The notes beneath the pieces are model-generated. The model did no database searches. It was not told where the DNA came from and saw only the letters and a program-made list of their open reading frames with translations. The position numbers and the translations under genes are program-made. From Candidatus Thorarchaeota archaeon (lineage in GTDB: Archaea; Asgardarchaeota; Thorarchaeia; Thorarchaeales; Thorarchaeaceae): a DNA stretch of 64,000 nt. The stretch is taken from positions 96,001 through 160,000 of the forward strand of contig JAGSHN010000004.1 of the NCBI GenBank assembly GCA_029855935.1. The letters are read 5' to 3'. This document shows positions 31,728 to 54,322 of the stretch, piece by piece (position 1 is the first letter of the stretch; each line of letters opens with the position of its first letter).

Positions 31728-31863
31728 TCTATGGGCCTCACATAACAATGGTCTGCAGTAGGGTTTGGTAGAACAGTATATAATCACCACACAGCACAGT
31801 CCATATAGTCACACACAATGACAATGCCAGATTGAACCATAGCGAATTGGAAGACAGTACTGT

Positions 31864-32682: not shown

Positions 32683-32774
32683 TGGGAAGGCGTTGGATGT
32701 GTTAGAAGATAAGGTTTTTATCACAAGTGGTTGACGGACGCGAGGACGCAACAGCTAAGAGTGGCGAGGTCCCT

Positions 32775-33086
32775 ATGACTCAGAAAGCGCGCATTCGACT
32801 TTCGAGCACGAACACGGAGCATCTGGATAGCGTATGCAACCAGATTCGTAGGATAACTCGGAAGACTGGAGTGAGGATGTCAGGTCCAATCCCCCTCCCC
32901 ACGAGGCGTATGGTAGTCCCAACTCGGAAGACTCCGTGTGGCCAAGGATCTGAGTCATGGGATAAGTGGGAGATGCGCATTCACAAGCGGCTGATTGATA
33001 TCGATGCAGACGAACGGGCAATGCGCCAGATAATGAGAGTCCGTATTCCAGACTCTGTCTATATTGAGATTGAGCTGACGGGCTAA
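32775..33086 (+). CDS. rpsJ: 30S ribosomal protein S10 (uS10)
   Basis: [34 protein letters not shown]. Confidence 0.98.
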
Positions 33087-35294: not shown

Positions 35295-35555
35295 ATGTCA
35301 GGTGGGCTTACAATCTCGGCACTCTCGGACTTTGCACGTATCGTGGCCCAGTATCTGGCGGAGATTTGGCAGTTCCTGATATTCATCGGTCAGGTCGCTA
35401 GCGTAGTTGTCATCCTTGTGGGAGCAATCCTCTGGCTGACCCAAGTCAATGTATCGAAGGGAAAGGCCATGGTCCTAAGTGGGGTGATACTTGCCATAAT
35501 AGTGCAGTACTTTGTAATGTATCCGCCTGCCCTAGTCGCTCGGCTCAGTCCATAG
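35295..35555 (+). CDS. Small 2-TM protein, VirB2/TrbC/CedA1-like pilin candidate
   Basis: 86 aa: amphipathic helix, TM1 (FLIFIGQVASVVVILVGAILWL), basic loop SKGK, TM2 (MVLSGVILAIIVQYFV). Confidence 0.5.
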   Translation: MSGGLTISALSDFARIVAQYLAEIWQFLIFIGQVASVVVILVGAILWLTQVNVSKGKAMVLSGVILAIIVQYFVMYPPALVARLSP

Positions 35556-35561
35556 TGTTCA

Positions 35562-36128
35562 CTATGTGCTGAGCACCCCATCACTCCACTCCCGCACCAA
35601 ACGGTCAATTCTCTTACACAGCCACTTCTCTTCGGGAGTCATCTGACGCAGTCTTTCTTGTGTAACTCCAGCTCGGGCAGCGCGAAGAATCTTGGAGAGA
35701 CGAGTGTTACTTAGCGACTCCGTCAATCTTTGTATTCCATCAATCTCCTCAAGTATTCGAGGATCGAGGGCGCTTCTATCGCGTTGCAGTCGCCTAATCT
35801 TCTCGGCAACAGCTACGTACAATGGAGCAGGCGGGATGCCTCCGTAGAGATCGCGCGGGTGCTTTCGTTCTTGTTGAAAGATATTACGAAGGCGTTGAAT
35901 TGAGTCGAATGCGTCGTTTGGGTCCAGCTCGACAGTATTGTGAAGCAGAAGAACGTTGAGTGCCCAATTCGGCAGCTCGGTCTGTGTATCGGGTGACAGG
36001 GGGCCGACATCCTTACCGCCAATAGTAATCGACCCGAGTGCACGTGTAAGTCGACATCTTCGGCCACTGTTCAGGAAGGCCATTCGGAGACGAGAGAATG
36101 CTTCTTGGGCAGTAGTTTCCAGTTTCAT
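35562..36128 (-). CDS. GINS complex subunit Gins23 (Psf2/Psf3-like)
   Basis: N-terminal B domain (GPL..TELPNWALNVL), helical A domain with RLSKI and MTPEE. Confidence 0.75.
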   Translation of the reverse strand: MKLETTAQEAFSRLRMAFLNSGRRCRLTRALGSITIGGKDVGPLSPDTQTELPNWALNVLLLHNTVELDPNDAFDSIQRLRNIFQQERKHPRDLYGGIPPAPLYVAVAEKIRRLQRDRSALDPRILEEIDGIQRLTESLSNTRLSKILRAARAGVTQERLRQMTPEEKWLCKRIDRLVREWSDGVLST

Positions 36129-36263
36129 TCGTGACCACTAGGAGCTGTTGGTTGTCAGCTCATTAAAAGATGATGGGATATCCGGTGTGACAAGTTTGTT
36201 GCATACACAGTTTCTTGAGAACGCAGGTGGTTCGTAGAAAAGCCGTGCTCACGTCGAGGGATA

Positions 36264-39200
36264 TTAGAGATCCAGTAGTGATGGACACTGACCAGGAACC
36301 CAGCTGTTTTCCATCAAATTGCTCAGTGAGATGATACGGCACCCGCGCGGGATATTGTCCAAGTTATCAGCATACTCGGCAGCTGGAAGGATAATAGTAA
36401 GTATGGAGGGAGGGCACTCTTCACCGTGCGGGCCGCCATCGTGCCGAACTGAATCATAGATCTCGGAGCGAGAAGGGAAGACTAGGTATGTCATACTCCC
36501 GTCACAGATTGATTTCCCACACACTGTGGGGCTCTCACTTCCCTGTTTTCTGAGCGAGTCCAACAGATGAGCAAGGCAGTAGTCCCGAAGTTGATTCAGA
36601 AAGCTCTGGGTTGCGACCCAGAGACCCCTGTCTATAGAGAGATCATCGATGCTATACGGCACGCGAATCGCGAACAACTTCTCATCTAGTAGCAGCTCTG
36701 ACAATGCACGACGCCCACCACTCTTATTGAGTTCGACACTATGCGCGCCCGTGGATTGTACTGCGACTGTGTCCAGAAACTCCAGCAGTTCACCCCATCG
36801 TACGCGTCCGTTATTAATCGTGACGTAACGCAGAAGGAGATTGCTCCAGACTTCATCGGCCATTGCAGGAGAAGGTTCTGTGGATGAGGGCGCATCCAGC
36901 TCTATTCCTGCATTGAGCCCACCATCTTGGTAGGCACGAGTTGCAATCGTGGTGTCGGAAAACGTGGACTCACGACTGGATAATGCGTCCGCTATGTCAA
37001 GGATCATACGGTCGATTGAAGAGGGAAAGGCAGGAATGACTTGGAATTCACTAGGGTGGGGAGCGTTTATGATGACCTCACGTACTTTTGCAGCCGCAAC
37101 GCTTCCCCTCACGATAACGAACAACCTAGAATCCTTTCCTACTGTTGCAACTAACGATTCCAGAGACTCAAGCGAGTCGGAGAGGGTAGCTGCCCGTAGT
37201 GAATCTGGGAACACAATAATGCGCACCTGATCGCCCACAGTAATTATACTACCGTTGACTCTAGTCTGTTGCCCAAACCCCACTTCTTCTAGCCTACGAC
37301 AGACGTAGTTCTTGATGATCTCCAGAACAACGGAGCGTCCCTCTCCGGGAAGAGTATAGATGAAGCCATCTCTAACAAGCCCAATTGCTTGGCGCTCAAT
37401 AGTCCCGAGAGTAATCAGCTCTGTTTTCAGCTCTGAGATCTCCTGTTTGGAAACGGATGTAATTGAAACTAGGACGGAGTGCAGCTCGGACTCGGTTAGG
37501 TATCTCCTGCTTTCCAGTGCATCAATGACATGCTCGGTGATTCTCGCAAATTGGTCGTACACAACAGTGGGCGGTTCGTTTCTCACGCCGTAACTGGCTT
37601 GGAGCAAGGTTGGTTGTACTCCAGACATTGGTACATCCTCTTGAGAATCGACTGAAACGGCGGAACCAGTAGGTGCAGGAAACGCGGTCGGAACAGTCAT
37701 CAACTCAAACGCATCGGTGACAGGTGTTGTCATTATTGCACGCCCTCTCCTCAGAGTGCGCAGATATCTCTCTTGTTCCGAATCCAACGAAAGAAGACGT
37801 GCTCCCACAAGGCTGTCGTAGGGCAATTTGAAGACTATCTTGGTGCCAGTATTGGCAAGTATGTTTGACGATACGGTAGGACGTGTCGCGACAACTATTA
37901 CCCCCTGCCCCGTTGCTCTCTGAAGCATAACCATTGACTCACCTGTAGTCACATCGGCGGCGGTAGAACGCGTGTAGCTCTCGGGGACGAGGTTATTGGC
38001 TTCTTCAAGAACAACGACATGGTGCAAGCCGTCCGAGATTCCACGTCTGAGAGCGGCCTCGAAGACTCTCTTCGCAATGAGATTATACAAGATGCGGGCA
38101 GCGTCCATCCCGCCAACCCGGGCCACGTGGCTCAAATCAAGAACTACACGCCGTTTCATGAGGGAGCTGAAGTGTACAGAGGCGCGTCCCCCGGCAAGGA
38201 TTGATGCCAATGGCTCCCTGCGTAGTATCTCCAAACGGTTCAACAATGCGTCAATTGTAAGGCTATTTGTGGAGTCCTTTCCCCTCTTGCCCTCGATTAC
38301 GCGGATCAGTGCTTTCGCCGAACGGTCTGGCAGCCTAGCAACCTCTTCCAGACAGACTAGTAACATTCGCTCCATCGCGGGGGAAAGATCAGAGCTTGAG
38401 CTACGTTCGTGAAGGATTTCTCTCAAGATTGCAAAGGTTGTGTGAGCAGCATTTTGGAGGTCGTCGGTTTCTTCGTCAATCAAACTCATTACAAAAACAT
38501 CATCCAGGCCGGGCTTGAATACGAGGACTTCGCCCGGTGAGAACGCCGCCAAATCGGCGTATTCAGACCCTTTCACATCGAAGACCCACCATGGAATCGT
38601 TGTCTTAACCGTGAGCTCCCAGATAATCCGTTTTACCACGGTCGTCTTCCCCATCCCGGTGGCACCAAGTACGGCAAGATGCTGGCGCAGCCACACTGGT
38701 TTCAAGCCAACAGGATTGAATTGTCGACCCTTGTATACAGACCATCCAATGAAGAGTTCGTTGTCTGTCAGGCTTCTTGATGGAACAGGGAAGTCTGGCA
38801 AGTCTACGGTATCCAGTTCAGGGATATGCTGAACTGGAGTATTGACGAACGTGACGAGCCTACTTGTGTGTAGACGTTGTGGTTTGATGTGTCGGCGCAT
38901 CAACACGCGGAGCAAGAACGCGGGATTTGGACGCTTGAGTACAAACCGGAATGAATCGTCCTCGCCCCAGATTGAATGGACAATTCCGTCCAGACGATTC
39001 GCCGCTCCCTTAGAGCTAGTAGACTGAAGGAGGCGAATAGTTGTTGTTACGCTAAACCACCCCTGATTGTCACGAGCAGCTGCAAACTCTTCCATGAGTC
39101 GTTTCTTACTGGTGTGGTCCTCAAGAGAGTCCTCTCGCCTCTTCTCTCTGGCGCGAATTTGGCGCCATCTGTGTTCTAGCCTCCGGCGTTGGCGACCGGG

Positions 39201-40154: not shown

Positions 40155-40259
40155 CGAGTTTCGCTGTGCTCGTCCGGTGAATCCAGACAGTCCTAGGTTT
40201 ACATACTACCATAGATAAGGCCCACATCTCTCCATCTGACAAACAGGACTCGGATTAGT

Positions 40260-42332
40260 TCAAGGTGAGAATGCCCTACGTTTCATCAGGACGGCCGTGA
40301 CAGGAGCAAATGATGCAATCAGGCTGTAGAAGAATGTTCTAATCCCGACACCTTGTGAGGATAGTATATCGTTTGCCTTCAACACTATTTCGAGGAACCC
40401 GCTTGATGCAGCCAACCCTCTACCGGATGGCGTTTCATAGAATAATACGTAGGTACCCGGTCTATTTGGAACAGGGAGATGAAGCATAGCAAAACCTTCG
40501 GCATCAGTCTGTGCCACGACTGATCGACTGAGCCAGGTAAACTGAACCGTGACGAAACCCAAACTTGTACCGTTGAGCGCTTGTGCCTGAACATAGGCGT
40601 GGATCTCTTGGAGAGGCGGTTCTACAGTATATTCAACGAGCCCAAGACGGGCCGGAATCTCAGTGCGTACTCTGAGGATGTATGTGGAAGTGGCATTTAG
40701 TTCATACTGACTACGTCCACTCAGAACAACCATGTATTCGTAGGTTCCAATCGAAGACGGAGCCCAGATTGGAAAGGAGGCTGTGCCCTCAGAACTAATA
40801 TCTTGTGCGCCCAGTAGGTGGCCGTCAAGTAGTAGAGAAGCTGTTTCTCCCGCGAGGGGACCTGTTTCATTCGTCACTTCCACGAGAAAGACGACTTCCT
40901 GGTGTGGACATGAGAAGCCAAGTGTGTTCGTTCGCACTGAAACTCTATGTTGATAGGCATAGTCGACGGAGAATACGCAGGAAACGTTCTCGAGAAACTC
41001 GTTCAGACGCACCTTGAGAAGCAGTGTATGTTTCCCGGGTGAACCCTGTACTCTGAGAGAGAACTCAACCGATGTGCGGTTCTCAACAACGGGCTCCACA
41101 CAGTAGAGAGACAGCTCGGGACTTTCCAGTACCACGAGCGCGGGGGATACGGATCGGCCGAGCGCATCAGTCACGGAAACATTGAGGAGGGCCCAAGACC
41201 CGATAAGCCACCTTGAGTCGGACTGGATATCCAGTAGGGTGGGGGAGGTCACAGCGAAAGAAAGAGAGTACGAGGCTGGATCGTATCTGTCGGATCCTTC
41301 AAAGAAGACGGTTAGCGAGTGGTTTCCAAGACCAAGTTCTTGATCGGCGTGGATAGTGATGTTGATCATTCCTGCGTGGTCAGTACGGAACGTGCCAATA
41401 GTGCGATCATCCAGAGTAGCCAAGACGTCGGCATTCTCGATGGGCTGCGACAACGAATCCAGCACCGTTGTCACCATTACTGTCGTGTTGACGGTGACTT
41501 GATACGGCACGGAAATAGGAGTGAATTGCGATGTGCGCCTAGCAATACTCACCGAGCAATATGCATGTGATGAAGCGTAGTATTGGGATGTATTATCGCC
41601 AAGATAACAAACACTGAGTTCGTTTTCGCCAATCACCGCCCATGACAGACTGACTGAGATGTTTAGACTCACCGAACCATTGGCATCAGTTGTGCCGTAG
41701 CCAATCACCTGCTCATTTGAGGCAACTGTGATTCGTTTACCCGCAAGTGGAGCTCCCCGATCATCTTGGAGTGATGCTCTGAGCACGAAGAAATCGCCGG
41801 GAGCCAGAGTAATATTCACAGGGTCTAGCTGAATCGTGATAGTGGTCGATGCAAGAACAACAAGTTCGAATTGTTCGTAACACGGGGCCAGTGCGAGTGA
41901 CTCATTTCCACGGTAGGTGGCATTGAGCACGATAGGGCCTACAGGAAAGTCGTATGGGATGGTCCATTGAAAATCTACACGGCCGCTTTCATCAGTGAGT
42001 CCAGTACCGAGAAACAGATCGTATGTTTCAACATAGAACTCCACTTCTTGATTGGCAACTGATGTTCCGGGCAGGCTGGAGGGAAGTAGCGAAACAGACA
42101 GGAGAAGGGTTTCACCTCGGCACACCAATAAGGTCGAGCGGCCATTGGTAGATACGGCACCAGACAGTACAATAGCAAATATTAGAATGCCAATGATTGC
42201 ATACTCGCGGTCATTCATCTCTTGGGTCACCTCCCGCGTATTAGCGCTGAGCATTGCACCCCGTTCATACTTGTGGAGCGGGGTGTGTCGACACATTCCA
42301 ATTGTCAACAGCTGGAGTTTCGTTCTTTCCAC
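40260..42332 (-). CDS. Surface protein with repeated Ig-like beta domains, N-terminal signal/TM and C-terminal TM anchor
   Basis: Repeats of G.TD..G...F/I and Y/F.G...Y..S, many N-x-S/T sequons; true start may be 42254 or 42218. Confidence 0.75.
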   Translation of the reverse strand: MERTKLQLLTIGMCRHTPLHKYERGAMLSANTREVTQEMNDREYAIIGILIFAIVLSGAVSTNGRSTLLVCRGETLLLSVSLLPSSLPGTSVANQEVEFYVETYDLFLGTGLTDESGRVDFQWTIPYDFPVGPIVLNATYRGNESLALAPCYEQFELVVLASTTITIQLDPVNITLAPGDFFVLRASLQDDRGAPLAGKRITVASNEQVIGYGTTDANGSVSLNISVSLSWAVIGENELSVCYLGDNTSQYYASSHAYCSVSIARRTSQFTPISVPYQVTVNTTVMVTTVLDSLSQPIENADVLATLDDRTIGTFRTDHAGMINITIHADQELGLGNHSLTVFFEGSDRYDPASYSLSFAVTSPTLLDIQSDSRWLIGSWALLNVSVTDALGRSVSPALVVLESPELSLYCVEPVVENRTSVEFSLRVQGSPGKHTLLLKVRLNEFLENVSCVFSVDYAYQHRVSVRTNTLGFSCPHQEVVFLVEVTNETGPLAGETASLLLDGHLLGAQDISSEGTASFPIWAPSSIGTYEYMVVLSGRSQYELNATSTYILRVRTEIPARLGLVEYTVEPPLQEIHAYVQAQALNGTSLGFVTVQFTWLSRSVVAQTDAEGFAMLHLPVPNRPGTYVLFYETPSGRGLAASSGFLEIVLKANDILSSQGVGIRTFFYSLIASFAPVTAVLMKRRAFSP

Positions 42333-42516
42333 TAGGTCGATTTGACTAGTCCTTATAGACTCCTACACGAGAGATGTTCTGATGAGGACCATAGTTTGTA
42401 ATGCTGCCACTTCCATGGGACACACGAAGAGGAGCATAGAACACGTCACTACCACCAACGACATGTTTAATTCAAGAACCGAACCCGTCAATACGAGAAA
42501 CTGGAGTGAGAACAGA

Positions 42517-42885
42517 TTGGTGGTCAGGATAAGAAATGCTACCATCGAGCAGATAAGAGGGCTTGAAACCCGACGAGTGAAAGAGTTGACGATGGTTTCT
42601 GGGGGGCAGGGAGTGTCGCTGGCGCTTGAGCTGCCTGATGCCCTCTGCGAGGGGTTCAAACAAAAAGAAACGACTACAGTCCTTGTAGACGCAGAGCCAA
42701 TTTCCAAGGGGGATGATGCACGATTCTACGCTGAGGCATCCGTGTTCAAAATCACCACGGATGCGGGGCAGTTGCACGTTGTGAGCACCATTGGTGGATT
42801 ACGGGTGGCAATCACATTTGTTAAACCCACACCATCACAGAAACGCGTCTTCTCATCAGGGAAGTTCTACATTGCCATCATCTGA
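42517..42885 (+). CDS. RNA polymerase subunit Rpo8 (RpoG/Rpb8-like OB fold)
   Basis: 122 aa from TTG 42517 (GGAG SD); beta-rich; VFKI and STIGGL resemble the Rpb8 GGL motif. Confidence 0.6.
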   Translation: MVVRIRNATIEQIRGLETRRVKELTMVSGGQGVSLALELPDALCEGFKQKETTTVLVDAEPISKGDDARFYAEASVFKITTDAGQLHVVSTIGGLRVAITFVKPTPSQKRVFSSGKFYIAII

Positions 42886-44682: not shown

Positions 44683-44906
44683 TATTGGTCACCTTTGCAG
44701 GTTCACAAGGCGTTGACTTCTATGTAGGGGTGGCAGCATGAGATGGACTGTTCTCTATCGAGCAATCTTGTGGCCCCCTAATAACCTCGTAGTGTGCAGA
44801 TGTAGAAGATGACACATCACTTGGGAGAACGGACGCGGAGCTGAAATGCTTTTGAGCGATTCACTGCGATATTCTTTAATACTCAGGGTAAGTGCCTGAT
44901 TCTTGA

Positions 44907-45001
44907 GCGGCCGTGGTCTAGCATGGTTAGGACGGAAGCCTCCCAAGCTTCCAACCCGAGACGGCATTGCCGCGGGAGTTCAAATCCCGGCGGCCGCACC
45001 A
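44907..45001 (+). tRNA. tRNA-Gly(CCC) with non-canonical 53/54 intron (44961-44978, 18 nt)
   Basis: GCGGCCG/CGGCCGC acceptor; GAAGC-CTCCCAA-GCTTC; BHB-like CCCG-AG^A-CGGC-att-GCCG-CGGG-AG^T; CCA encoded. Confidence 0.88.
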
Positions 45002-45213
45002 TCCATTCCCATCCTATCTGTGATAGTCATACTTATTGGTGGATTGTATAACAGACAAGAATGGCGAGTGATGACAGAAATGACCCCAATGAGTCGATTT
45101 GGACAATGATTGGGATCTTGAGTGAGGAGCTCGCCACTAATATTTTCGGTCACCCCTGACTCCTATGTCCGATTAATAGTACAGCCACAAACTCTTTTAA
45201 GCCCACAAAAGAA

Positions 45214-46440
45214 GTGTCGGAATGGTTCGTGATGCCGAGCGGATATATGAACTATATTGAAGATGAGTTGAACAAAGAGTCTGTATTCAAAGCGGAACAT
45301 GTTCTTTCGATAGACTATGTCCCAAGAAATTTGCCCCATCGCGGACGAGAGATGCAGATACTTGCGCAGGGTTTCAAATCGTTAATCACGGCACCAGGCC
45401 AGACGAGCCCGAGATTCATCATAGAGGGGCCAGTTGGAACTGGAAAGACTGCAGTGGCGAAGTTGCTCACTGAACAGATAGTGGAGGCAGCACAACGACG
45501 CGGGATCAACCTATACAAGATTCATATCAACTGTAGAGTCAGCAAGACGATGTATTTGGTCTATCTGCGTATGCTCCGCGAGTTCAAACCAAGGTTCCCA
45601 CGGAGAGGACACTCTCCACACGAGCTATTGCAGGTACTTGTAGATGTTCTAGACGAGAGAGATTGCTATCTCCTCGTTGTTCTTGATGAGTTAGACTACT
45701 TCATCCGTCACAATGGGGCAGATATAATCTATGATCTGACTAGGCTGATGGATGACCGTCTCAATGCACCACAGCGTCTTTCTTTCATCGGGATTGGCAG
45801 GGAAATCTCTCTCGATAGAGGCCTACTCGACGCGAGTACGACGAGTACACTCCAGAGGAACATCTTGCACTTTCAGAAGTATAGCGCGCCTGAGTTGTAT
45901 GATATTCTGAAGGAGCGTGTTGATGAGGCATTCATCGAGAATGCTGTACTCGATGAAACAATTCAGCTGATATGTGACATCGCAGCGCAGCATGGAGACG
46001 CCCGTTATGCGATAGAACTCCTGTGGCGGGCAGGAAAGCAGGCAGACAGAGAGGGAGCTCGTGTGGTAATCCCGGACTTTGTGCGTCAGGCCAAGGCAGA
46101 CACACATCCTGAGTTGCGTAAAGAGGTCTTCTTGACTCTGCCTATGCATAATCGACTCCTGTTACTCGCTATTGCGCGTTGTCTCAAAGATAACAGAGAG
46201 GCGTATGTCACTATGGGAGAGGTCGAGAGAATATATCATTCGGTCTGTGAAGAGTACGGAGAAGCACCACGTGCGCACACCCAAGTCTGGGAGTGGATTC
46301 AGGACCTATCTGCTCACGGGGTTATCGATGCAAAAAGATCGGGTGCCGGCCATCGGGGTCAGACTACGCTAATTGGAGTGTCAGATGTACCTGCCGAGAT
46401 GTTGGAACGGTTTCTGCTGGACATGATTGAAACAACGTGA
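45214..46440 (+). CDS. cdc6: Orc1/Cdc6 replication initiator
   Basis: LSIDYVP..LPHR, GPVGTGKT, HINC, VLDELD, GDARYAIELL, C-terminal wH; true start may be 45232 or 45247. Confidence 0.96.
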   Translation: MSEWFVMPSGYMNYIEDELNKESVFKAEHVLSIDYVPRNLPHRGREMQILAQGFKSLITAPGQTSPRFIIEGPVGTGKTAVAKLLTEQIVEAAQRRGINLYKIHINCRVSKTMYLVYLRMLREFKPRFPRRGHSPHELLQVLVDVLDERDCYLLVVLDELDYFIRHNGADIIYDLTRLMDDRLNAPQRLSFIGIGREISLDRGLLDASTTSTLQRNILHFQKYSAPELYDILKERVDEAFIENAVLDETIQLICDIAAQHGDARYAIELLWRAGKQADREGARVVIPDFVRQAKADTHPELRKEVFLTLPMHNRLLLLAIARCLKDNREAYVTMGEVERIYHSVCEEYGEAPRAHTQVWEWIQDLSAHGVIDAKRSGAGHRGQTTLIGVSDVPAEMLERFLLDMIETT

Positions 46441-46741
46441 GATGATAGGAATGCGTACTGCGTCAACGCCACAAATACCCATTGAAGAAATGTTCTCTTC
46501 TCGTGGGCGAGTCAGAATTCTCAAGGAGCTTGCAATGGCGGAGGAGCTCAATATATCGGAGGTATGCCGGCGCACTGGACTCAACCACAGTACGACCAAG
46601 GCACATCTGCGGGTCCTAATAGCATCCGGCCTCATTGAGGAGAAGACTTTCGGACGGATAAGGATATACCGCTATAGGATTGAGGACATAAGAGCGCGCT
46701 CACTAAGAAATCTCTTTCAGCTCTGGGAGTCGGGAGCGTAG
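46427..46741 (+). CDS. ArsR-like winged-helix protein coupled to cdc6
   Basis: FSSRGRVRILKEL, LNISEVCRRTGLNHSTTKAHL, FGRIRIY. Confidence 0.85.
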   Translation: MKQREMIGMRTASTPQIPIEEMFSSRGRVRILKELAMAEELNISEVCRRTGLNHSTTKAHLRVLIASGLIEEKTFGRIRIYRYRIEDIRARSLRNLFQLWESGA

Positions 46742-46747
46742 ACGCCG

Positions 46748-47602
46748 ATGGAATATCTAGCACGTCTGTTCTATATTGGAGACCAGTTTCACGGATCGCA
46801 GGCACAACCAGGGCTAAGGACCGTTCAGGGAGAACTCATTCATGCCATCCAACAGTGGAGTGGAGAGGAACATTCAACTGCGACTGTTCGATTGTCAGGC
46901 AGAACAGATAGAGGAGTCCATAGTATCGGCCAAATAGTGTCAATCACTACTGGGAGCTCATTCGACATCAATGGCATAAACAAACGTCTGCCCCGAGACA
47001 TATGCCTCTGGGCGCACACAAGGGCTCCAGACGGGTTTGATCCAAGACGCGATGTTCTGATGCGGCACTATAGATATGTCCTGACTGAGGGAGAAGAAAC
47101 GAACATAGGATTGATGCGAGAGGCTGCACAGATAATCGCCGGGTTCCACGACTTTGTGTGTCTTTCTAAGCGAGACGGCGACAGACCTACGGTCACAACC
47201 TTGTTGAACATTGCTATCTCCCAACACGACGACGTGACTGTTGTCGATGCCTTTGGGTCGAGTTTTCTTTGGAAACTTGTCCGCAAGATCGTGACGCTGC
47301 TATACTGGGTTGGAATTGCCTCAAGTAGCCTTGAAAACGTCCGCGCAATATTGGAACAAGGGCAGTGCCCCAGTGGAGGAATCCGACCAGCCCCTCCGGA
47401 GGCCTTATTCCTTGTAGAAGTCATAGTGCCATTCCAGCTCATCCCTAACAAATATGCTCTGAAACGTGTCAGAAAGACCCTTGCGTCGAAATTGTCGTTT
47501 CTAAGAAGGTCGTATCATGCAATGAGAGCTATTTTCGCTTCAGAAGTAATGAGAACAGGTCCTCTTTCAAACCAAGCCAATTCCGAATCTCTTTGGCCAT
47601 AG
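46748..47602 (+). CDS. truA: tRNA pseudouridine(38-40) synthase
   Basis: FHGSQAQP..RTVQG, SGRTDRGVHS, RHYRY, SFLWKLVRKIV. Confidence 0.93.
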   Translation: MEYLARLFYIGDQFHGSQAQPGLRTVQGELIHAIQQWSGEEHSTATVRLSGRTDRGVHSIGQIVSITTGSSFDINGINKRLPRDICLWAHTRAPDGFDPRRDVLMRHYRYVLTEGEETNIGLMREAAQIIAGFHDFVCLSKRDGDRPTVTTLLNIAISQHDDVTVVDAFGSSFLWKLVRKIVTLLYWVGIASSSLENVRAILEQGQCPSGGIRPAPPEALFLVEVIVPFQLIPNKYALKRVRKTLASKLSFLRRSYHAMRAIFASEVMRTGPLSNQANSESLWP

Positions 47603-48740
47603 AATCAGATGCCTGTGACAGGAACTGCAGCGTGTGCCAATAGACGTGCTGAATACGATATCGTGAGATGCCACTGATTCTTGCGATTTTTGAGAGGAGT
47701 GCCACCCGCTTCTCACCAATCTTATTACCTTTCCATACTAGCAGAGGCAGCGAGGGTCGGGAGTACCTAGACTTTCGAAATGGGGTTTTCGTTCGGCTCT
47801 GCGTGAGGCCAGTTCCTAGAAGGTCGTAGAAATATGACAGTAATTTCCATGTCTGTCCGCGCGTAATTCGTCCGAGGACCAAATCCGCAAGGGAGAATGC
47901 CTCATATCCTACATCAAGCTCCGAGCTTGCCTGGAGATGGAGGGGACAGTTCTCCTCGACCCAAAGGAGAACCTGCTCATAATCTACATCTGTATTGGAG
48001 AGGATTCGACGCGCCACTGATGGATCGACGCTCGAGAATAGGCGAGGAAGCATCTCTGTTATAGGCCATAACGTATCACGAGGGGCCGGAGCGCTCGACA
48101 CGGATCCTAGGGTTCCGGATGCAATTGCCTCTAGGTCGGATATTGCTGCACGGAGGTCACCGCTTGCTCGCTCAGCAATACTGCTAAGAGACTCCTCAGA
48201 CAACTCTATCCGCTCAGCGCGACAGATTCGTTTCAACACTTCAATGATGTCACTGTGGCTGACTGGTGAGAAAGAGAGGAGCTTGCACTTCCTGACAACA
48301 TCCTTCATTCTGTCATCGTCGGCGCTATTGGCAGTCATGACAATTGGATACGCTGTTTCGTCAACCAGTTTTAGGATCGAGCGGAGCCCCCCACGGTCTC
48401 CTGCCCCTGATAGACCATCGACTTCATCAAGCAGGATTATCCGCATTCGCCCGTCCAGCGTTCCTTGTGTTGCAGAGCGCCGTATCAGAGTGTCAACCAC
48501 TTCTCGGTTCCGTTGGTCACTGGCGTTGAACTCCACAAGTTCGGCATCCAGAGCGTTGGCGATAGCGTGAACAGATGCGGTCTTCCCCACACCGGGAGGA
48601 CCGACAAGTAATATCGCTCTCTTCCTAGGAGGGGACGACACCCACTGTCGTAGCCAATCCTCCAATTCTTTTCGAGCGGTACCGTTACCCACCAGTTGCG
48701 CGGGGTTTCTGGGACGATACTTTTCCGTCCATGGAACCAT
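47529..48740 (-). CDS. rfcL: Replication factor C large subunit
   Basis: PWTEKYRP, GPPGVGKT, EFNASDQR, LLDEVDGL, GDLRAAISDL. Confidence 0.94.
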   Translation of the reverse strand: MVPWTEKYRPRNPAQLVGNGTARKELEDWLRQWVSSPPRKRAILLVGPPGVGKTASVHAIANALDAELVEFNASDQRNREVVDTLIRRSATQGTLDGRMRIILLDEVDGLSGAGDRGGLRSILKLVDETAYPIVMTANSADDDRMKDVVRKCKLLSFSPVSHSDIIEVLKRICRAERIELSEESLSSIAERASGDLRAAISDLEAIASGTLGSVSSAPAPRDTLWPITEMLPRLFSSVDPSVARRILSNTDVDYEQVLLWVEENCPLHLQASSELDVGYEAFSLADLVLGRITRGQTWKLLSYFYDLLGTGLTQSRTKTPFRKSRYSRPSLPLLVWKGNKIGEKRVALLSKIARISGISRYRIQHVYWHTLQFLSQASDSMAKEIRNWLGLKEDLFSLLLKRK

Positions 48741-48746
48741 CCGTCA

Positions 48747-49703
48747 TCACGCCCGGTTTCCCGCCGACTGACGAAGTGCACTCAAGAGCGCAGTGAGTTG
48801 TATCTCTCCATTGGACCCCTCTGTGATTCGGAATTCGGTGTCAGCAATACTCTGAAGTGTGTCGATAGAAACAGTATCCACCACATTTCTCAGCTCCTTG
48901 TGAATCTGTCGCACAAGGTCAAGCGGTGCCACTCCAACTTCAAGAAGAAGATGACGCATCGTATTAGTGGCTTGTTCGGTTTCGCCGCGGAGAGCGCTCC
49001 ACAGCATATTTCGAATAGTTTCGGGGCTGGCTCGACCAGAGATTGAGAAGACAATGTTGTCATCGATAGGACGCCCTGTAGCCGATGCGCCCTGTAGAAG
49101 ATTGATTGCAGCCCGCATGTCCCCCTCGGCCAAGTAGAGGATTGCATCTAGTCCGTCATTCTTTATTGGAACGCCCTCCTTCTTGGCAATGTACCTTAGG
49201 CGTTGTCCTATCACATCATCACTCAATCGGGAGAACCTGAAAATTGTGCATCGGGATTGGAGTGGAGGAATAATGCGACTTGAATAGTTACAGATGAGAA
49301 TCATTCTGCAAGATGATGCATAGGATTCCATAGTTCGACGAAGTGCGTGTTGTGCATCGGCTGTGAGATGGTCCGCTTCATCTAGGACAAGAATCTTGAA
49401 CGGCGCTCCACCAGCCGGCATGGACCTAGCAAACATCTTTACTTGATTCCGCACGACATCAATACCACGTTCGTCACTTGCATTCAATTCCATAAAGTTC
49501 TGCTCGAAAGAGGACTGAAACAGATCCCGCGCCATGGCCATTGCAGCGGTTGTCTTGCTTGTGCCAGGTGGTCCGCTGAACAAACAGTGAGGGACTCTAC
49601 GTTCCTCTACGAAACGCATTAGACTCTCAACTATCGCATCCTGCCCAACTATCTCGCTAAGAGTCTTGGGCCTGTATTTCTCTGTCCATAGGCCGTTTTC
49701 CAT
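48747..49703 (-). CDS. rfcS: Replication factor C small subunit
   Basis: WTEKYRP, GPPGTSKT, ELNASDERG, LDEAD, QSRC. Confidence 0.96.
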   Translation of the reverse strand: MENGLWTEKYRPKTLSEIVGQDAIVESLMRFVEERRVPHCLFSGPPGTSKTTAAMAMARDLFQSSFEQNFMELNASDERGIDVVRNQVKMFARSMPAGGAPFKILVLDEADHLTADAQHALRRTMESYASSCRMILICNYSSRIIPPLQSRCTIFRFSRLSDDVIGQRLRYIAKKEGVPIKNDGLDAILYLAEGDMRAAINLLQGASATGRPIDDNIVFSISGRASPETIRNMLWSALRGETEQATNTMRHLLLEVGVAPLDLVRQIHKELRNVVDTVSIDTLQSIADTEFRITEGSNGEIQLTALLSALRQSAGNRA

Positions 49704-49756
49704 TAGGCAGTCCCACCATTTATGGAACGTCTAGGTCTTCTGGGTGGAGGTTGAAC

Positions 49757-50878
49757 TTAAAGTTGGTGTGCCGAGGAGTCATTGGAGGCAGCTATGGGGG
49801 ACATGACTATTCGTTTGATGATGCCATAGTGATCGCGAATACTGTACTCGGCAACACCTGTTGCAAGCGACGTGAGCTTTTGCGTTAGGATGGGCCTTCG
49901 ACTATACTCTGCTGCGATTAGTTGATCAGCCGCGTACGCGGCTGATGCGGCGAATATGAAGGGATTGCGACCTCCTCTCTTCGAGGACGGTATTCTCCTG
50001 ATGAGACGGAGAGTCTGATCACGAAGTAGAGTTTCATATTTCGAGGGATCCCACCCACGCGAAACAGTCTTCTCATGGACTTGCGAATTCTTCATCAACA
50101 TGGACACGATACGTGGGACATAGTCCGCAGGGTCCCTGGCGGAGGGGATGCGACCAGTGAGACTCCGCAGGGTCAATAATTGACGAACGATAGCCCGAAC
50201 ACTAACACGATGACCACATCGCGCAAACACATCAGCAATTTCATCAAGAGTGATTGGAGCGTCTTCTCCGAATTCGCGCACCGCCAATAGGAGACACACT
50301 GCCACAAGTAGTATATTATTGTTGGAAACAGATGCGTGAGCCTCGGATAGTATCTTCTTGTAGAGATACGCTGCACGATCACGCACCTGCGTGCTCACCA
50401 TCAATAGTCTGGACACGCGGTTCAACGTCCGTAGTGCGCGATATTGTGTTTCGTTAGTTCCAATCCGGGCCCTGGTCCCGTATATTGTCTTAAGGCGGTG
50501 AAACCGCCGTTGATTCATACCACTAAGTGCGTGCCCACGAGCGTCTCTGAGAAAGCGAGCTCGGTGGAATCCGATGTAGCTACCCATTCCGTCTACGATA
50601 TGAAGACGATTTCCAAGCGAAACGTAGACGCTGCTGTCCGAATGGTGCGCTTCCGATTCCTTTAGCATGTGGTAAGAGGGGGAAACGTAGGCTCGCGAAA
50701 CTACGAGCCCGCATGCGGTGCACACGATGAATCCACGGCTGCTAGTCAGCAACCCACCGCACTCAGGGCATTGTTGAATTATGTCGTGTCTGATCTCTTC
50801 CTCGGTCAATGACCACACCCGAGGAAGAGGTGTGATCTTAGCTGCTAACTGAGTTTCACACACGTTCTGTCTGTTCAA
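49757..50878 (-). CDS. Divergent transcription factor B (TFIIB) family paralogue
   Basis: Zn ribbon CPECGG..CTACGLV plus two cyclin-like repeats (RDRAAYLY; GRNPFIFAASAAY..LTQK..GVAEYSIR); true start may lie downstream. Confidence 0.82.
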   Translation of the reverse strand: MNRQNVCETQLAAKITPLPRVWSLTEEEIRHDIIQQCPECGGLLTSSRGFIVCTACGLVVSRAYVSPSYHMLKESEAHHSDSSVYVSLGNRLHIVDGMGSYIGFHRARFLRDARGHALSGMNQRRFHRLKTIYGTRARIGTNETQYRALRTLNRVSRLLMVSTQVRDRAAYLYKKILSEAHASVSNNNILLVAVCLLLAVREFGEDAPITLDEIADVFARCGHRVSVRAIVRQLLTLRSLTGRIPSARDPADYVPRIVSMLMKNSQVHEKTVSRGWDPSKYETLLRDQTLRLIRRIPSSKRGGRNPFIFAASAAYAADQLIAAEYSRRPILTQKLTSLATGVAEYSIRDHYGIIKRIVMSPIAASNDSSAHQL

Positions 50879-51058
50879 CTGTGCAGAGTGTCCATCCTAT
50901 CGTATCACTCCGGCGCTAGATAGGATGGACGTTACGTGCTCTGAGGGCGAGGAGCAGAGTAGAGCGAAAGTATTCCCAGTGGATGAGGCAATGGACCTTG
51001 TAGGAGCTTATAACACACCAACCAAGGGGGAGTATGAGTCAGTACCTCAACACGGTGC

Positions 51059-51274
51059 GTGGATGTCATGAAACGAGATGAAACGTTAATCCGAAACAAG
51101 AGAGGTGGCCCTCTGGTTGAAGAGAGCCTGCTCCTTGGTCTTGCAGTTGTCACTGTTTCTATTGTCATAGCCGTAATACTGCAAGCAACGGGGTGGGCAC
51201 AAGAGGTCATCAATAATTTAATCGGAGTCCTTCAGAGTAGCTGGGACGGTCTGACACAGCTATTCACGCCCTAG
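51059..51274 (+). CDS. Flp-like / class III signal peptide prepilin
   Basis: RNKRG^GPLVEE followed by a hydrophobic stretch; Glu at +5; about 55 aa mature. Confidence 0.65.
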   Translation: MDVMKRDETLIRNKRGGPLVEESLLLGLAVVTVSIVIAVILQATGWAQEVINNLIGVLQSSWDGLTQLFTP

Positions 51275-51398
51275 TCTCGACCTTCACATATCTCCCTTGC
51301 CTGAAACCTTTATTCCCACTGCTCAGGAATCAAGGATCAAGGGAAACCCTTATCTGGCCTTATAGAGGGGCCTAGGTCGCTCCGGGCTGGTGTCGACG

Positions 51399-51510
51399 GC
51401 CCCGGTAGAGTCTTCACGAATACACATCGTGAGGCCACCGAGTGTAGTCCGGCCCAGCATAGGGGACTCTCGATCCCCTGACCCGGGTTCAAATCCCGGC
51501 CGGGGCACCA
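51399..51510 (+). tRNA. tRNA-Glu(CUC) with non-canonical 10/11 intron (51409-51442, 34 nt)
   Basis: GCCCCGG/CCGGGGC acceptor; GGGGA-CTCTCGA-TCCCC; BHB CGGT-AG^A..hairpin..ACCG-AG^T; CCA encoded. Confidence 0.9.
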
Positions 51511-51658
51511 TCGTTCTCTTATTCTGAGTTTAACCATGAAGTGATTGAATCCTTTGGAGGTTCCAAGGCCAACCAAATCCGTGTGGGCCTTAAATTAAGT
51601 CTAGTTGGACTAACTGCCGGAACATCAGGAACAGGTTTAGACTTGTGGTGATACATCA

Positions 51659-54322
51659 GTGACAGCTGCCTCAGGAGTTCGGTTGGGTGCCGTAGGAGTC
51701 CTTGCAGTTCTTGCAGTGGCCGTCTGCGCTGCCGCATTCAGCTTCGAATTCTACTATTTTGAAACCGATAAGCAGGTCTACGAGGTTGGCGAAACTGTAC
51801 ATATGACTGCAAAGATGACAGCTGACTTTGACGACGGTGGTTGGTGTTACGTTTCGTTTTCGGTGGTGTTGAACGAAACAAGTGTGCACCAAGACGGATT
51901 CTATCTCCGCCCCTCGCCTCTTCCCCAGTATCCGTCGTCCACCTTCCTAATCACCCCGGAAAGCGTTCATCCAGGCGAGAATGGGCTGTCGGGATTTGCG
52001 ATCTTTGACTACGACTTCTACGACCCCAGATACTCGGAGGCATCTTCCGTATCCATAGAAATCAACGTGACGAGAGGTCATCTGGAGGCTGTGCCCTTAG
52101 AGCCTCTCGAGGCCAAGACAGGTGCCAACGTCAGCTTCTCGTTTCGGGTGACGAGCATTCACACCGAGCAGGTGGTCATGAAGGATGAAGCTGTTTACAT
52201 GAGTATAGCCAATGGTTCTGACACTCTTCTAGAATCGCAGGTGCAGTCAGACAGTGAGGGTGTGGCCACGTTTCCAATCTCGACAACCGGATTCTTGCCC
52301 GGACAGTATGATCTGACAATAGCGACAAATGGAACGAGTGCGTTTCTTCCGCTAGAGCAGAGATTCGTTCTGAATATCACCCCACAGCATTCGCGCATTG
52401 ACACCACGTACTCACCGTCGTGGGCGTACTGTAGGAGCCCAACTGGAGAATACCAAAACGTGACGGTCAGAGTCAAACACTCGGACGACACAGGAAACCC
52501 GATAACGAAGAGCAATGTGACGTGGTCGCTCGGCAACTATACGGGCGTTCTCTTTGAGTCGCCGATAGGGGAGTACTCTGCACAAATACCTGTTCTTCTG
52601 TCTCCGGGTGACTACCAAATTACGATACAGGCAACGAACCCATTGTTCGAAACTGTGTCAGAGAACCTTTCACTTCGAGTCGACGCCAGACCACTCGCCT
52701 CTAACTGGATTGTGCGGAACAAAACCCCCGTAGCAGGCGAAATCATGTCATTTGCGGTCTGTGTGGCTGACAACCTATCCGGAAAAGGAGTCGGCTCAGC
52801 GTTGGTTTCATTTAGCATTCATGACCTCGCGGGGCAGACAGTATTCTGCAATGGGACTACCAATTCTACTGGGTGGATGGTTGGTTCAATCGTGCTTCCA
52901 AGTGACACGTGGGGAAGAGTAGCGGCATTGCTTGTCATCGAGCCTACAGAGTACTTCCGCTCTATTCAGAAAAACGTGACGCTCGACATATGGTATCGCC
53001 CCAGTCTTGTGACAAACCATTCGCTCAGAGCAGTCGTCGGGTATGATACCAACTTCTCCTGCCTTGTTGCAGATCCTCTTGGCAGGCCAATCAGTGGGGT
53101 GTCCATCACGGTCTATAATGCGAGCATGGTGGCGGTTGGTTCGGGAACGACTAACGAACAGGGGATAGCAAAGCTGAGCTTTTTCGTTCCACACCCGCTC
53201 AGCACCAGTATCAAGATGAGCGTAGGTATTGGCTATGTGGATAGTCTCTGGATAGCTCCCACGAAAGAGAACATCTCAGTCGATGTGCTAACTCCAGTCA
53301 ACATCTTGATTCAAAACGCGTGTGCTGGGGTACGCGGAGAAAATGCAACGATACGATTTCATATCGACTCGGAGTGGTTGAACAAAGGGGTGGTTTCGTT
53401 GCTAGTCACCGGACCAAGCACAAATCAGTCAGTATCTCTCTTTGCAACACTAGGCACGAACGTTTCTATCGACATTCCAATCAACAGCTCTCTCCCCGTC
53501 GGAGTTCATCCACTCAGAATTACCACGACAAACGCAACACTTGAGGTCCTTGGCAATAACGTCGTTCCACTCGTCGTGAGAGGATTGTTGACCGTGACTC
53601 CCACCGCAACTCTATCATTCTTCGGCGAGCCTCTGATACTCGATGTCCAAGTTGTGGATGACCTTGGCACACCGCTCGCAATGGCCAACTTGAGTATCCT
53701 TCTTGATGAGCAGGAAACAGTACCATGGTGGACCAGCGAAGTTTCGCTCCTTGCCCCCATAGAGGGGCCAATACTAAACACTACACCGGGCCTTCATACG
53801 ATGATCCTCGTGGTCAATGTGACAAACTACTCCACGGTGAATGTATCTCTAAGTCTGTTCGTATGGATACGGGTCAACATGGTGTTCGATGTTTCGCGGA
53901 TGGCGGCTAGTAGTACAGGACAGACACAAACTGCTCACTCAAGTTCTTCAATTCTGTCAAGTATCTCACCGGGTTCGATAAGCCGACCCCCACCAACCTT
54001 GGTCAACGTTGCAACCTCAACAACGCCTCTCACGGCGTGCTCTACAGCCCATACGAGCTGTCCCAGGCTCAGTTCCGGCACCAAGATCCTATCAACCGAT
54101 TTGGCAAATGACAGCAAGGCCTCATCAGGAAATGGCCACAAAGTTCGCAGTCTGAATGACCTCACGGTACTGGGGGACATCTGGACCACCTCTTCGACGC
54201 TTCTAGCGGTGCTACCAAAGGAAACAATGCCCCACTGTGCTCTCTTGGGGCCCGTGACAACTGGCCCGGGAAACAGATGTTTGTGCAATGACACCTTTTC
54301 GTCCAGACGTCGCACCAGATAA
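51659..54322 (+). CDS. Large secreted Ig-like repeat (glyco)protein; C-terminal ~129 codons overlap the OFOR alpha gene antisense
   Basis: Signal peptide, TDKQVYEVGETV (MG2/Ig-like start), repeated D..G.P and G.T...G motifs, many sequons. Confidence 0.75.
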   Translation: MTAASGVRLGAVGVLAVLAVAVCAAAFSFEFYYFETDKQVYEVGETVHMTAKMTADFDDGGWCYVSFSVVLNETSVHQDGFYLRPSPLPQYPSSTFLITPESVHPGENGLSGFAIFDYDFYDPRYSEASSVSIEINVTRGHLEAVPLEPLEAKTGANVSFSFRVTSIHTEQVVMKDEAVYMSIANGSDTLLESQVQSDSEGVATFPISTTGFLPGQYDLTIATNGTSAFLPLEQRFVLNITPQHSRIDTTYSPSWAYCRSPTGEYQNVTVRVKHSDDTGNPITKSNVTWSLGNYTGVLFESPIGEYSAQIPVLLSPGDYQITIQATNPLFETVSENLSLRVDARPLASNWIVRNKTPVAGEIMSFAVCVADNLSGKGVGSALVSFSIHDLAGQTVFCNGTTNSTGWMVGSIVLPSDTWGRVAALLVIEPTEYFRSIQKNVTLDIWYRPSLVTNHSLRAVVGYDTNFSCLVADPLGRPISGVSITVYNASMVAVGSGTTNEQGIAKLSFFVPHPLSTSIKMSVGIGYVDSLWIAPTKENISVDVLTPVNILIQNACAGVRGENATIRFHIDSEWLNKGVVSLLVTGPSTNQSVSLFATLGTNVSIDIPINSSLPVGVHPLRITTTNATLEVLGNNVVPLVVRGLLTVTPTATLSFFGEPLILDVQVVDDLGTPLAMANLSILLDEQETVPWWTSEVSLLAPIEGPILNTTPGLHTMILVVNVTNYSTVNVSLSLFVWIRVNMVFDVSRMAASSTGQTQTAHSSSSILSSISPGSISRPPPTLVNVATSTTPLTACSTAHTSCPRLSSGTKILSTDLANDSKASSGNGHKVRSLNDLTVLGDIWTTSSTLLAVLPKETMPHCALLGPVTTGPGNRCLCNDTFSSRRRTR

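Follow-up and report, generated by a model that had tools for sequence, protein, structure and literature searches.

The Ced system (CedA, CedA1, CedA2, CedB, CedD and CedE) and the Ted system (TedA, TedB and TedC) are DNA-import systems of Thermoproteota (PMC9905601, PMC11868833). The motors CedB and CedD consist of a transmembrane (TM) anchor, an N-terminal domain (NTD) plus a HerA/VirB4-type ATPase, and their NTDs are similar to portions of the VirB4 NTD (PMC11868833). Subclade 4D of the archaeal type IV filaments (T4F), described in Pyrobaculum and Thermoproteus, comprises a protein that spans the membrane 4-5 times and an ATPase whose small N-terminal domain has conserved cysteines (Makarova, Koonin and Albers 2016, PMC4858521). 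Its operon encodes a single-cyclin TFIIB variant, the RPB8 gene is in the same operon or divergent, and the loci contain no pilins (PMC4858521). A 2026 survey reported that T4F genes are scattered in Asgard genomes, and that the subsystem-4 loci found there mostly (17) have 4D-specific components (PMC13705601). In this study, we analysed a 19-kb stretch (positions 35295-54322) of a Thorarchaeota genome, which encodes a VirB4-like ATPase, a type IV filament-type secretion ATPase, a two-helix membrane protein (TM2), a Flp-like small protein, and two surface proteins with immunoglobulin (Ig) repeats (Ig690 and Ig887). A sequence-only reading had taken these six genes for one undescribed DNA-transfer or cell-contact apparatus. 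By analogy with known systems, we tentatively believe (probability about 0.42) that the stretch holds parts of two vertically inherited envelope machines that could jointly serve contact and DNA exchange. Module A matches a reduced type IV filament system of the published 4D kind, with the secretion ATPase, a Flp-like pilin of about 45 residues when mature, a dedicated TFB and Rpo8. Module B is a membrane-anchored ATPase of VirB4-type fold, tied to anchored Ig-repeat surface proteins and TM2.

The window, which is the whole stretch of 64,000 nucleotides analysed, corresponds to positions 96001-160000 of contig C17 in a 2.97-Mb assembly (genome G000) with a completeness of 97%. Genes were called from open reading frame (ORF) lists and Pfam/NCBIfam scans, and tRNA genes were called by ARAGORN. 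The comparisons covered 81 genomes of the class, 151 Asgard genomes, and 20 loci from 17 other Thorarchaeaceae genera, onto which the window proteins were mapped. Asgard families are labelled f1, f2, f4 and so on (f1 is Thorarchaeaceae), and genomes are labelled G001, G008 and so on.

All six genes are present as intact ORFs, and their orthologues are clustered together in the loci from the 17 other Thorarchaeaceae genera, which goes well beyond chance. Whole-genome searches in the class found the VirB4-like gene in 76 and the secretion ATPase gene in 74 of the 81 genomes. The two ATPase genes were nearly always 2.5-4.5 kb apart on one contig, at a protein identity of only 36-47%. The usual order starts with korA and Ig887 (-), followed by Rpo8, TFB, the T2SSE ATPase and Flp on one strand (+). 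It continues with Ig690 (-), the VirB4-like ATPase (+), an isopentenyl-phosphate-kinase-like gene, S10, glmS and TM2, and cdc6 lies just beyond the edge of the cluster. G008, the other sampled genome of the same genus as G000, also has this order. In G000, several genes are inverted relative to it, and a cdc6-ArsR-TruA-RFC-TFB-Flp segment lies between two tRNA genes, parting the secretion ATPase from TFB and Flp. G000 is a scrambled outlier among the Thorarchaeaceae, and only here does the cdc6-RFC block lie amid the six genes. The 3' ends of tRNA-Gly and tRNA-Glu (window 44978-45003 and 51487-51512) have 26 nt in common at 88% identity. They flank exactly the cdc6-to-Flp segment that is displaced in G000 only, and could be a recombination site for the rearrangement.

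The genomes G001, G074 and G002 are each rearranged differently, and in them two blocks tend to move as units. One block is Ig887 with Rpo8-TFB-ATPase-Flp, and the other is Ig690 with the VirB4-like ATPase through glmS-TM2. In the sister family (G015), only the VirB4-like ATPase and Ig690 are kept, as a divergent pair. The idea of one apparatus gives way here to two modules that can separate. The gene set is chromosomal, vertically inherited and not mobile. The ORF lists contain no integrase-like ORF in the stretch, no relaxase or coupling protein was seen within the window, and the GC content is flat (0.50-0.53) across the stretch. The sole notable direct repeat consists of the similar 3' ends of the two tRNA genes. 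The sequence-only reading was right that no integrase or att repeats are evident, and its view of the genes as domesticated rather than mobile is borne out by their conservation and clustering in the class.

The large ATPase of module B has N-terminal TM helices, an NTD, a P-loop motor (about residues 456-827) and a C-terminal extension of ~470 residues. The motor matched DUF87 (2.7e-12), its Walker A and B motifs are intact, and the invariant G-x-x-G-x-G-K and E-E-A columns are present. The best NCBIfam family was CedD (5e-11), at 41.9 bits against a cut-off of 600; the proposed link to Ced holds as the nearest family and falls far short of membership. An AlphaFold2 (AF2) model of residues 131-860 (pLDDT 82.7) was searched by Foldseek and VIA. 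In Foldseek, the top match was full-length TrwK/VirB4 of R388 over ~800 columns (E 2.8e-20), followed by HerA (E 6e-14) and the C-terminal domain of VirB4 alone (E 2.5e-11). The full-length TrwK alignment covers model residues 1-700 and is nine orders of E-value above that of the VirB4 C-terminal domain, at a root-mean-square deviation of about 16 A. The VIA matches of the motor domain were DndH-C (Z 30.7), VirB4 (30.6), TrwB (27.5), HerA (26.2) and FtsK (17.4). The model indicates that the large ATPase has a VirB4-type fold, in agreement with the membrane-anchored VirB4/HerA-type ATPase recognised by the earlier reading. The 470-residue extension has no credible Pfam match and no recognisable family.

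Homologues of this ATPase were found in 117 of the 151 Asgard genomes, usually as one copy. The full-length homologues inspected are membrane-anchored proteins of 710-1400 residues, mostly encoded amid housekeeping genes. No FtsK_SpoIIIE gene was found in the G000 genome, and the match of PF01580 to the VirB4-like ATPase is at the level of the P-loop (16 bits). In one f12 genus, most genomes are without the VirB4-like gene in the syntenic slot (G151:C3 vs G118:C22). These genomes still keep the flanking Ig-repeat gene, TM2, and a complete TFB-ATPase-platform-Flp operon. Elsewhere in the G000 genome, a 172-residue protein with 4-5 TM helices (G000:C14:63045-63560), whose C-terminal half resembles the TM2 hairpin, is encoded beside the V-type ATPase B subunit gene. 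The f15 operon of TM2 and the VirB4-like gene is likewise near a V-type ATPase B subunit gene, and in f21 a similar protein of 171-173 residues is encoded directly after the secretion ATPase. The 172-residue protein is a candidate for the missing membrane partner.

In its AF2 model (pLDDT 88.8), TM2 is a helical hairpin with helices 3-48 and 53-75. Alignment A1 of its family shows a conserved G-x-I-x-W ... G-K ... G-x-x-L ... P motif, in which the conserved loop carries G-K. As modelled, TM2 has the two hydrophobic helices and short basic loop of VirB2, CedA1 and TedC. In f15 (four genomes) and f4 (two genomes), TM2 is encoded directly upstream of the VirB4-like gene and co-directionally with it, with gaps of 31-66 bp. 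The distance is about 5 kb in f12 and 3-5 kb in Thorarchaeaceae. In the window, TM2 is 0.7 kb from the VirB4-like gene on the opposite strand, with GINS23 between them. Many thorarchaeal genomes have a second close TM2 paralogue, which in most loci inspected is in a conserved housekeeping context near rpl1-rpl10; G000 is without it.

Only 50 relatives of TM2 came up when 1.84 billion representatives were searched exhaustively with its profile. The TM2 profile matched a bacterial protein of 678 residues (P0159) at a whole-library E of 4e-5, and the two matching stretches of P0159 are Pfam T4SS_pilin (PF18895) domains (E 2.5e-12). Among 29 distant relatives, the Pfam families matched by the largest number of them were TrbC/VirB2 (five) and T4SS_pilin (four), and these scores were weak except for two P0159 fragments. 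In several distant relatives, as in TedC (PMC9905601), a signal peptide precedes the hairpin. A word-indexed search with the T4SS_pilin-like piece of P0159 gave no matches, and a PDB profile search with TM2 found nothing. The contexts of four distant relatives, alone amid housekeeping genes with no VirB4 nearby, were uninformative. Complex prediction for TM2 with ATPase residues 55-330 gave a score of 0.00, which speaks neither for nor against binding. We also considered TM2 as a copy of the motor's own anchor and rejected this, since hhalign against the N-terminal TM region of the ATPase showed no similarity. We regard TM2 as a candidate VirB2/CedA1-like partner of the VirB4-like ATPase. It could be VirB3-like instead, and a small hairpin gene just upstream of virB4 fits this equally. 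Of the claim that TM2 is a VirB2/CedA1-like protein, the tie to the ATPase stands in other Asgard families, and the profile link to the pilins of type IV secretion systems (T4SS) is weak.

Ig-repeat genes accompany the VirB4-like gene in four families and are its divergent neighbour in f1 and f2. In f12, an Ig887-like gene follows the VirB4-like gene on the same strand after 58 bp and an Ig690-like gene is found about 8 kb further on, and in f15 a 292-residue Ig-repeat relative is about 6 kb away. Ig690, whose true start is probably near 42218, has an N-terminal signal or anchor and a C-terminal TM anchor with a basic tail, as have most orthologues. Ig887 has a Sec-type signal and is the divergent neighbour of Rpo8-TFB-ATPase in relatives. 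The Ig-repeat proteins may plausibly act as adhesins or structural parts. Over its last ~125 codons (window 53935-54322), Ig887 is antisense to the 3' end of korA. This overlap occurs in all 17 loci examined, at 142-430 nt (mostly 316-430). When korA was resampled synonymously, 25-76% of trials per genome still had an open antisense frame, which gives only a weak indication of selection for the overlap.

The secretion ATPase of module A matched the NCBIfam FlaI (2.8e-28) and TadA-family (3.9e-24) models, both below cut-off. Its PDB matches were 2oap (Archaeoglobus GspE2, 1.8e-29), FlaI (2.5e-21) and CpaF (8e-13). An N-terminal motif of four cysteines (C-x5-C-x2-C...C) is kept in 19 thorarchaeal orthologues, and cysteine-rich N-termini also occur in f12, f9 and f22. 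The Flp-like gene immediately adjoins the secretion ATPase gene in 17 Thorarchaeaceae genera, f12 and f22, and is divergent from it in f22. Members of the Flp-like family (alignment A4) have a basic leader, then G / (G,S)-P-L-V-E-E-x-L-L-L-G, then a hydrophobic helix; L19, E21 and G27 are invariant. The window protein has G-P-L-V-E-E, and the f22 member has G-S-L-L-E-Y-G, the classical Flp motif. The motif and the position beside the secretion ATPase in relatives support the view of this small ORF as a Flp-like prepilin.

The G000 genome has exactly one T2SSF platform gene of the FlaJ/TadC type (G000:C13:39097-40617, adjoining an Nre-family gene) and one A24 prepilin peptidase gene with a GGGD motif (G000:C14:105837-106313). 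No platform or peptidase gene was found in any thorarchaeal cluster locus examined. Genome-wide, all parts of a Tad/Flp-type system (ATPase, T2SSF platform, A24 peptidase and Flp-like pilin) are in G000. In three f12 genomes, the order is TFB-x-ATPase-T2SSF (277 residues)-T2SSF (219 residues)-Flp, and in one of them (G118) an Rpo8-like gene is just upstream of the TFB-x-ATPase run. A prepilin peptidase was suspected in the f12 neighbourhood and rejected, as the two genes there are fumarase subunits. In f5, two membrane-protein-sized genes and, on the opposite strand, a TFB paralogue come after the secretion ATPase. G000 has just one further T2SSE-like gene, which encodes a different protein of 419 residues (G000:C14:203809-205068) directly after the tRNA-splicing endonuclease gene and is probably not pilus-related.

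The TFB paralogue has a Zn ribbon and one cyclin repeat detectable by Pfam, with 22.6 bits on that repeat. The four canonical TFBs of G000 score 58-84 bits with two repeats each; the paralogue is the fifth and weakest copy. It adjoins the secretion ATPase in f1, f12 and f5, and is 5 kb away in the window. Orthologues of the Rpo8-like protein matched PF16992 at 26.9 bits (cut-off 27) and, in f12, at 5e-4; the gene is the only Rpo8 candidate in the G000 genome. Rpo8, TFB and the ATPase are co-oriented in most Thorarchaeaceae genera and in f12. The features of the stretch and its surroundings are listed in the table.

Table. Features in and around the stretch, in window coordinates
Feature	Position	Strand	Basis
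Roadblock-DENN-MglA operon	29267-31790		
S10	32727-33086	+	Pfam/NCBIfam
glmS	33297-35120	+	Pfam/NCBIfam
TM2, two-helix membrane hairpin protein, 86 aa	35295-35555	+	Intact ORF
GINS23	35562-36128	-	Pfam/NCBIfam
VirB4-like ATPase (DUF87/HerA-type), 1296 aa	36264-40154	-	Pfam DUF87
Ig690, Ig-repeat surface protein, 690 aa	40260-42332	-	Pfam Big_3_5 1.2e-19
Rpo8 (RpoG)-like small protein	~42463-42885 (start approximate)	+	Borderline PF16992 in orthologues
Secretion ATPase (T2SSE/FlaI/TadA-type), 608 aa	42856-44682	-	Pfam T2SSE 2.4e-18
tRNA-Gly(CCC)	44907-45001	+	ARAGORN
Orc1/Cdc6	45214-46440	+	Pfam/NCBIfam
ArsR-type helix-turn-helix protein	46427-46741	+	Pfam/NCBIfam
TruA	46748-47602	+	Pfam/NCBIfam
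RFC large	47529-48740	-	Pfam/NCBIfam
RFC small	48747-49703	-	Pfam/NCBIfam
Divergent TFB paralogue	49757-50878	-	Pfam Zn_Ribbon_TF 1.1e-6, TFIIB 3.7e-5
Flp-like ORF, 71 aa	51059-51274	+	ORF + motif
tRNA-Glu(CUC)	51434-51510	+	ARAGORN
Ig887, secreted Ig/MG-repeat protein, 887 aa	51659-54322	+	Pfam Big_1 3e-10, MG4
korA	53935-55068	-	Pfam/NCBIfam

The interleaved genes are those that had been named before (GINS23, Rpo8-like, Orc1/Cdc6, RFC, the divergent TFB and tRNAs), together with the ArsR-type protein and TruA. The cdc6-ArsR-TruA-RFC block (45214-49703) is a member of neither machine, but belongs to the same ancient neighbourhood. G000 has two Orc1/Cdc6 genes, both on contig C17. ARAGORN called tRNA-Gly(CCC) at 95 nt, which is above the standard tRNA length; the gene may contain an intron.

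Outside the Thorarchaeota, 14 genomes from six additional families (f5, f9, f12, f21, f22 and f24) have the two ATPase genes on a single contig at a distance of 7-25 kb. By chance, two ATPase genes so close are expected in about 2% of genomes. The shared neighbourhoods also hold cdc6-ArsR (f5, f9, f22), TruA and RFC (f5, f12), the roadblock-DENN-MglA operon and ribosomal genes, so the linkage may reflect an old, slowly breaking block around cdc6. In f5, as in the window, the run from cdc6-ArsR through TruA to RFC small lies beside the secretion ATPase, and most Thorarchaeaceae differ in order. Either this is the ancestral arrangement or the neighbours were brought together twice. The interleaving with cdc6 and RFC reflects ancient synteny around cdc6, kept across Asgards, together with rearrangements found only in G000; mobility is not its cause. 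The dispersal and interleaving described in the sequence-only reading are real, and they are explained partly by local scrambling and partly by this deep synteny.

If the two modules cooperate, a model can be drawn from Ups and Ced in Sulfolobales, where TFB3 also acts; from this likeness we infer the following steps. The A24 peptidase would cleave the Flp-like protein after the conserved glycine, and the secretion ATPase and platform would extrude a thin Flp filament. This filament would bring cells into contact, with the Ig-repeat adhesins helping. A hexamer of the VirB4-like ATPase, held at the membrane by its own TM helices and with TM2 as a pilin-like conduit or anchor, would move DNA (or another polymer) across the envelope. 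Such transport would be like that of CedB/CedD-CedA1 and TedB-TedC in Thermoproteota. The TFB paralogue would switch the gene set on.

A number of observations weigh against two cooperating machines of this kind. The linkage of the modules cannot be told apart from deep synteny around cdc6. The PDB profile search with the VirB4-like ATPase returned HerA-clade entries only, and not VirB4. TM2 was found in 65 of the 151 Asgard genomes, fewer than the ATPase, and often in 2-5 copies. It was not found in the motor-bearing families f5, f9 and f18, lies just after the housekeeping gene glmS in Thorarchaeaceae, and is kept in f12 genomes with an empty VirB4-like slot, such as G151. The Pfam TrbC and T4SS_pilin models gave no direct match to TM2. 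Its model returned only generic helical hairpins (Snf7, PorM, HAMP-like) in Foldseek pdb and wide VIA searches; the hairpin fold is too simple for fold searches to be informative on pilin identity. The Flp-like ORF matched no Pfam family at E <= 1, and the class III signal model PF04021 had no match anywhere in the G000 genome. As to whether the two small proteins look like pilins, the TM2 hairpin fits as any helical hairpin would, and the Flp-like ORF shows the motif with no Pfam pilin match. When TrbC, T4SS_pilin, TrbL and Class_IIIsignal were run against the whole G000 genome, no match to the genes in question was obtained. No VirB6/CedA-like channel appeared as a TrbL match in that genome, and an all-against-all neighbour comparison gave no recurrent polytopic neighbour of the VirB4-like gene across Asgard families; CedA and TedA are undetectable without profile-profile searches (PMC9905601), and the same would limit these negatives. 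Of the partners lacking in the window, the platform and peptidase exist on other contigs, and the channel was not found. The authors who described subclade 4D pointed to a possible link with transcription and suspected that 4D systems are not pili at all (PMC4858521), and the 2026 survey viewed the scattered 4D parts in Asgards as a probable remnant (PMC13705601). A Ced/Ted-like contact and DNA-exchange reading is plausible, and its DNA-transfer step is one that we only infer.

Other explanations of the stretch need to be weighed. We consider it somewhat unlikely that the modules are two unrelated systems, neighbours only through the old cdc6 block, and that the VirB4-like ATPase moves no DNA. 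The ATPase would then power the export, anchoring or turnover of the Ig-repeat proteins, or assemble a TM2 filament, and the Flp set would be an ordinary adhesion pilus. The independent movement of the two blocks in G001, G074 and G002 agrees with this, as do f15 and f7, in which the two ATPase genes are on different contigs or far apart. Moreover, the neighbourhood also holds cdc6, RFC, rpl1/rpl10 and the MglA operon, and no neighbours of the VirB4-like gene are more constant than the Ig-repeat genes. However, two ATPase genes within 25 kb in seven Asgard families would be unusual without a functional tie, and all parts are still within 19 kb in G000 despite heavy local scrambling. VirB4-family motors are known from DNA or effector transfer, not from export of Sec-type surface proteins. 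The view that the stretch is a remnant of an integrated conjugative element is almost certainly wrong. It would account for the tRNA genes in the stretch and for VirB4-like and VirB11-class ATPases, which are typical of conjugative elements. It does not fit a chromosomal location shared by 17 genera whose proteins are 36-47% identical, the uniform GC content, or the lack of an integrase and of any att-like repeat beyond the tRNA homology.

The remaining alternatives concern one module each. Module A may be no pilus but a transcription-linked membrane ATPase device with Rpo8 and TFB, for example one that controls or sequesters a transcription factor, in which the Flp-like protein is a small membrane subunit that is not extruded. 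The Rpo8-TFB-ATPase order, which is kept from Thermoproteales (PMC4858521) to f1 and f12, speaks for it, together with the conserved cysteine domain of the ATPase, the Rpo8-like gene as sole Rpo8 candidate in G000, and the Flp-like protein without a Pfam pilin match. We judge this improbable, as the Flp-like protein has a G / x-x-x-x-E(E/Y) processing motif with a hydrophobic helix, T2SSF platform genes lie between the ATPase and Flp in f12, and a GxGD prepilin peptidase is retained in G000. A still lower probability is given to the VirB4-like ATPase as an FtsK-like chromosome translocase for division. Such a role would explain the vicinity of cdc6 and RFC and the near-universal single copy in Asgards lacking FtsK. 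G000 has no FtsK_SpoIIIE gene, the homologues in 117 of 151 genomes are usually single and amid housekeeping genes, and the TM anchor, motor and long C-terminal extension are arranged as in FtsK. Nevertheless, the motor resembles VirB4, TrwB and HerA (Z 26-31) far more than it does FtsK (Z 17.4), and the best full-length match is VirB4. The gene was lost without replacement in most members of one genus, and genes for surface Ig proteins and for a pilin-like hairpin are among its neighbours.

Two envelope machines that jointly serve contact and DNA exchange would have consequences beyond this genome. If module B moves DNA between cells, Asgards would have a built-in means of gene exchange related to conjugation machinery. 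This would bear on how the lineage ancestral to eukaryotes shared genes and made cell contacts. A wider claim is that all Asgards keep a chromosomally fixed, T4SS-derived DNA-exchange machine (VirB4-like motor, VirB2-like pilin and Ig adhesins) that cooperates with a 4D-type Flp pilus under a dedicated TFB, near cdc6. We hold this to be unlikely; if true, it would be a conjugation-like system in the closest prokaryotic relatives of eukaryotes, akin to yet distinct from Ced/Ted. For subclade 4D (ATPase, TFIIB and RPB8), the results give a much wider range and a candidate pilin, which makes its function testable. They also supply a concrete example for the published puzzle of why Asgard T4F genes are scattered: an ordered locus, still found in one Asgard family, seems to have broken up here. 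What this analysis adds are the operons of TM2 and the motor in f4 and f15, the weak link of TM2 to T4SS pilins, the ordered f12 locus and the cdc6/RFC synteny; the pilus half is of a known kind.

Compared with the described systems, module A matches subclade 4D in four of five architectural features, judged from architecture only, with no Thermoproteales sequences compared. Shared are the secretion ATPase with a small N-terminal cysteine domain, the adjacent TFB variant, in which a Zn ribbon and a single cyclin repeat are detectable, the RPB8/Rpo8 gene in the same orientation or divergent, and a membrane partner that is not always adjacent. In contrast to the 4D loci, which were described as pilin-free, the Asgard loci carry a Flp-like pilin gene beside the ATPase. 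They also differ in having recognisable T2SSF platform genes, adjacent in f12 and on another contig in G000. Contrary to the sequence-only reading, the pilus half is not undescribed: its architecture, with TFIIB and RPB8, has been published (PMC4858521), and so have the scattered T4F genes of Asgards (PMC13705601). The ordered locus of f12 points to a secondary origin of the scatter in Thorarchaeaceae and not to a remnant state. With bacterial Tad/Flp and archaeal Epd-like pili, module A shares a very small pilin with a G / x-x-x-x-E-Y-type motif. The CpaF-related ATPase (E 8e-13), the A24 peptidase and the two TadB/TadC-like platform genes in f12 are further likenesses to bacterial Tad/Flp. 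Unlike there, the Asgard pilin has no Pfam Flp or Class_IIIsignal match, the ATPase resembles archaeal GspE2/FlaI more than CpaF, the genes are scattered, and TadZ, a secretin and pseudopilins are absent.

Next to the bacterial T4SS core (VirB2, VirB3, VirB4, VirB6 and VirB11), the Asgard set shows no VirB6, VirB8, VirD4 or relaxase counterpart. Nonetheless, the best full-length structural match of the large ATPase is TrwK/VirB4, the small hairpin gene just upstream of the motor in f4 and f15 is in the virB2/virB3 position, and an ATPase of the VirB11 superfamily is in the neighbourhood. This VirB11-class ATPase goes with a T2SSF platform and a Flp-like pilin; therefore, it is a type IV filament ATPase and not VirB11 proper. 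From Ced and Ted, the Asgard set differs in that no CedA/TedA (VirB6-like) channel was found. Its motor is twice as long, with the 470-residue C-terminal extension, and reaches only 41.9 of 600 bits for CedD. It also has Ig-repeat surface partners. Like Ced and Ted, it is chromosomal and domesticated, and its motor combines a TM anchor, an NTD and a HerA/VirB4-type ATPase with CedD as the best NCBIfam match. Some Asgard lineages encode a small two-TM protein beside the motor, and a TFB paralogue lies nearby, as may be compared with TFB3. The same genome also has a type IV pilus system, which may give contact as Ups does.

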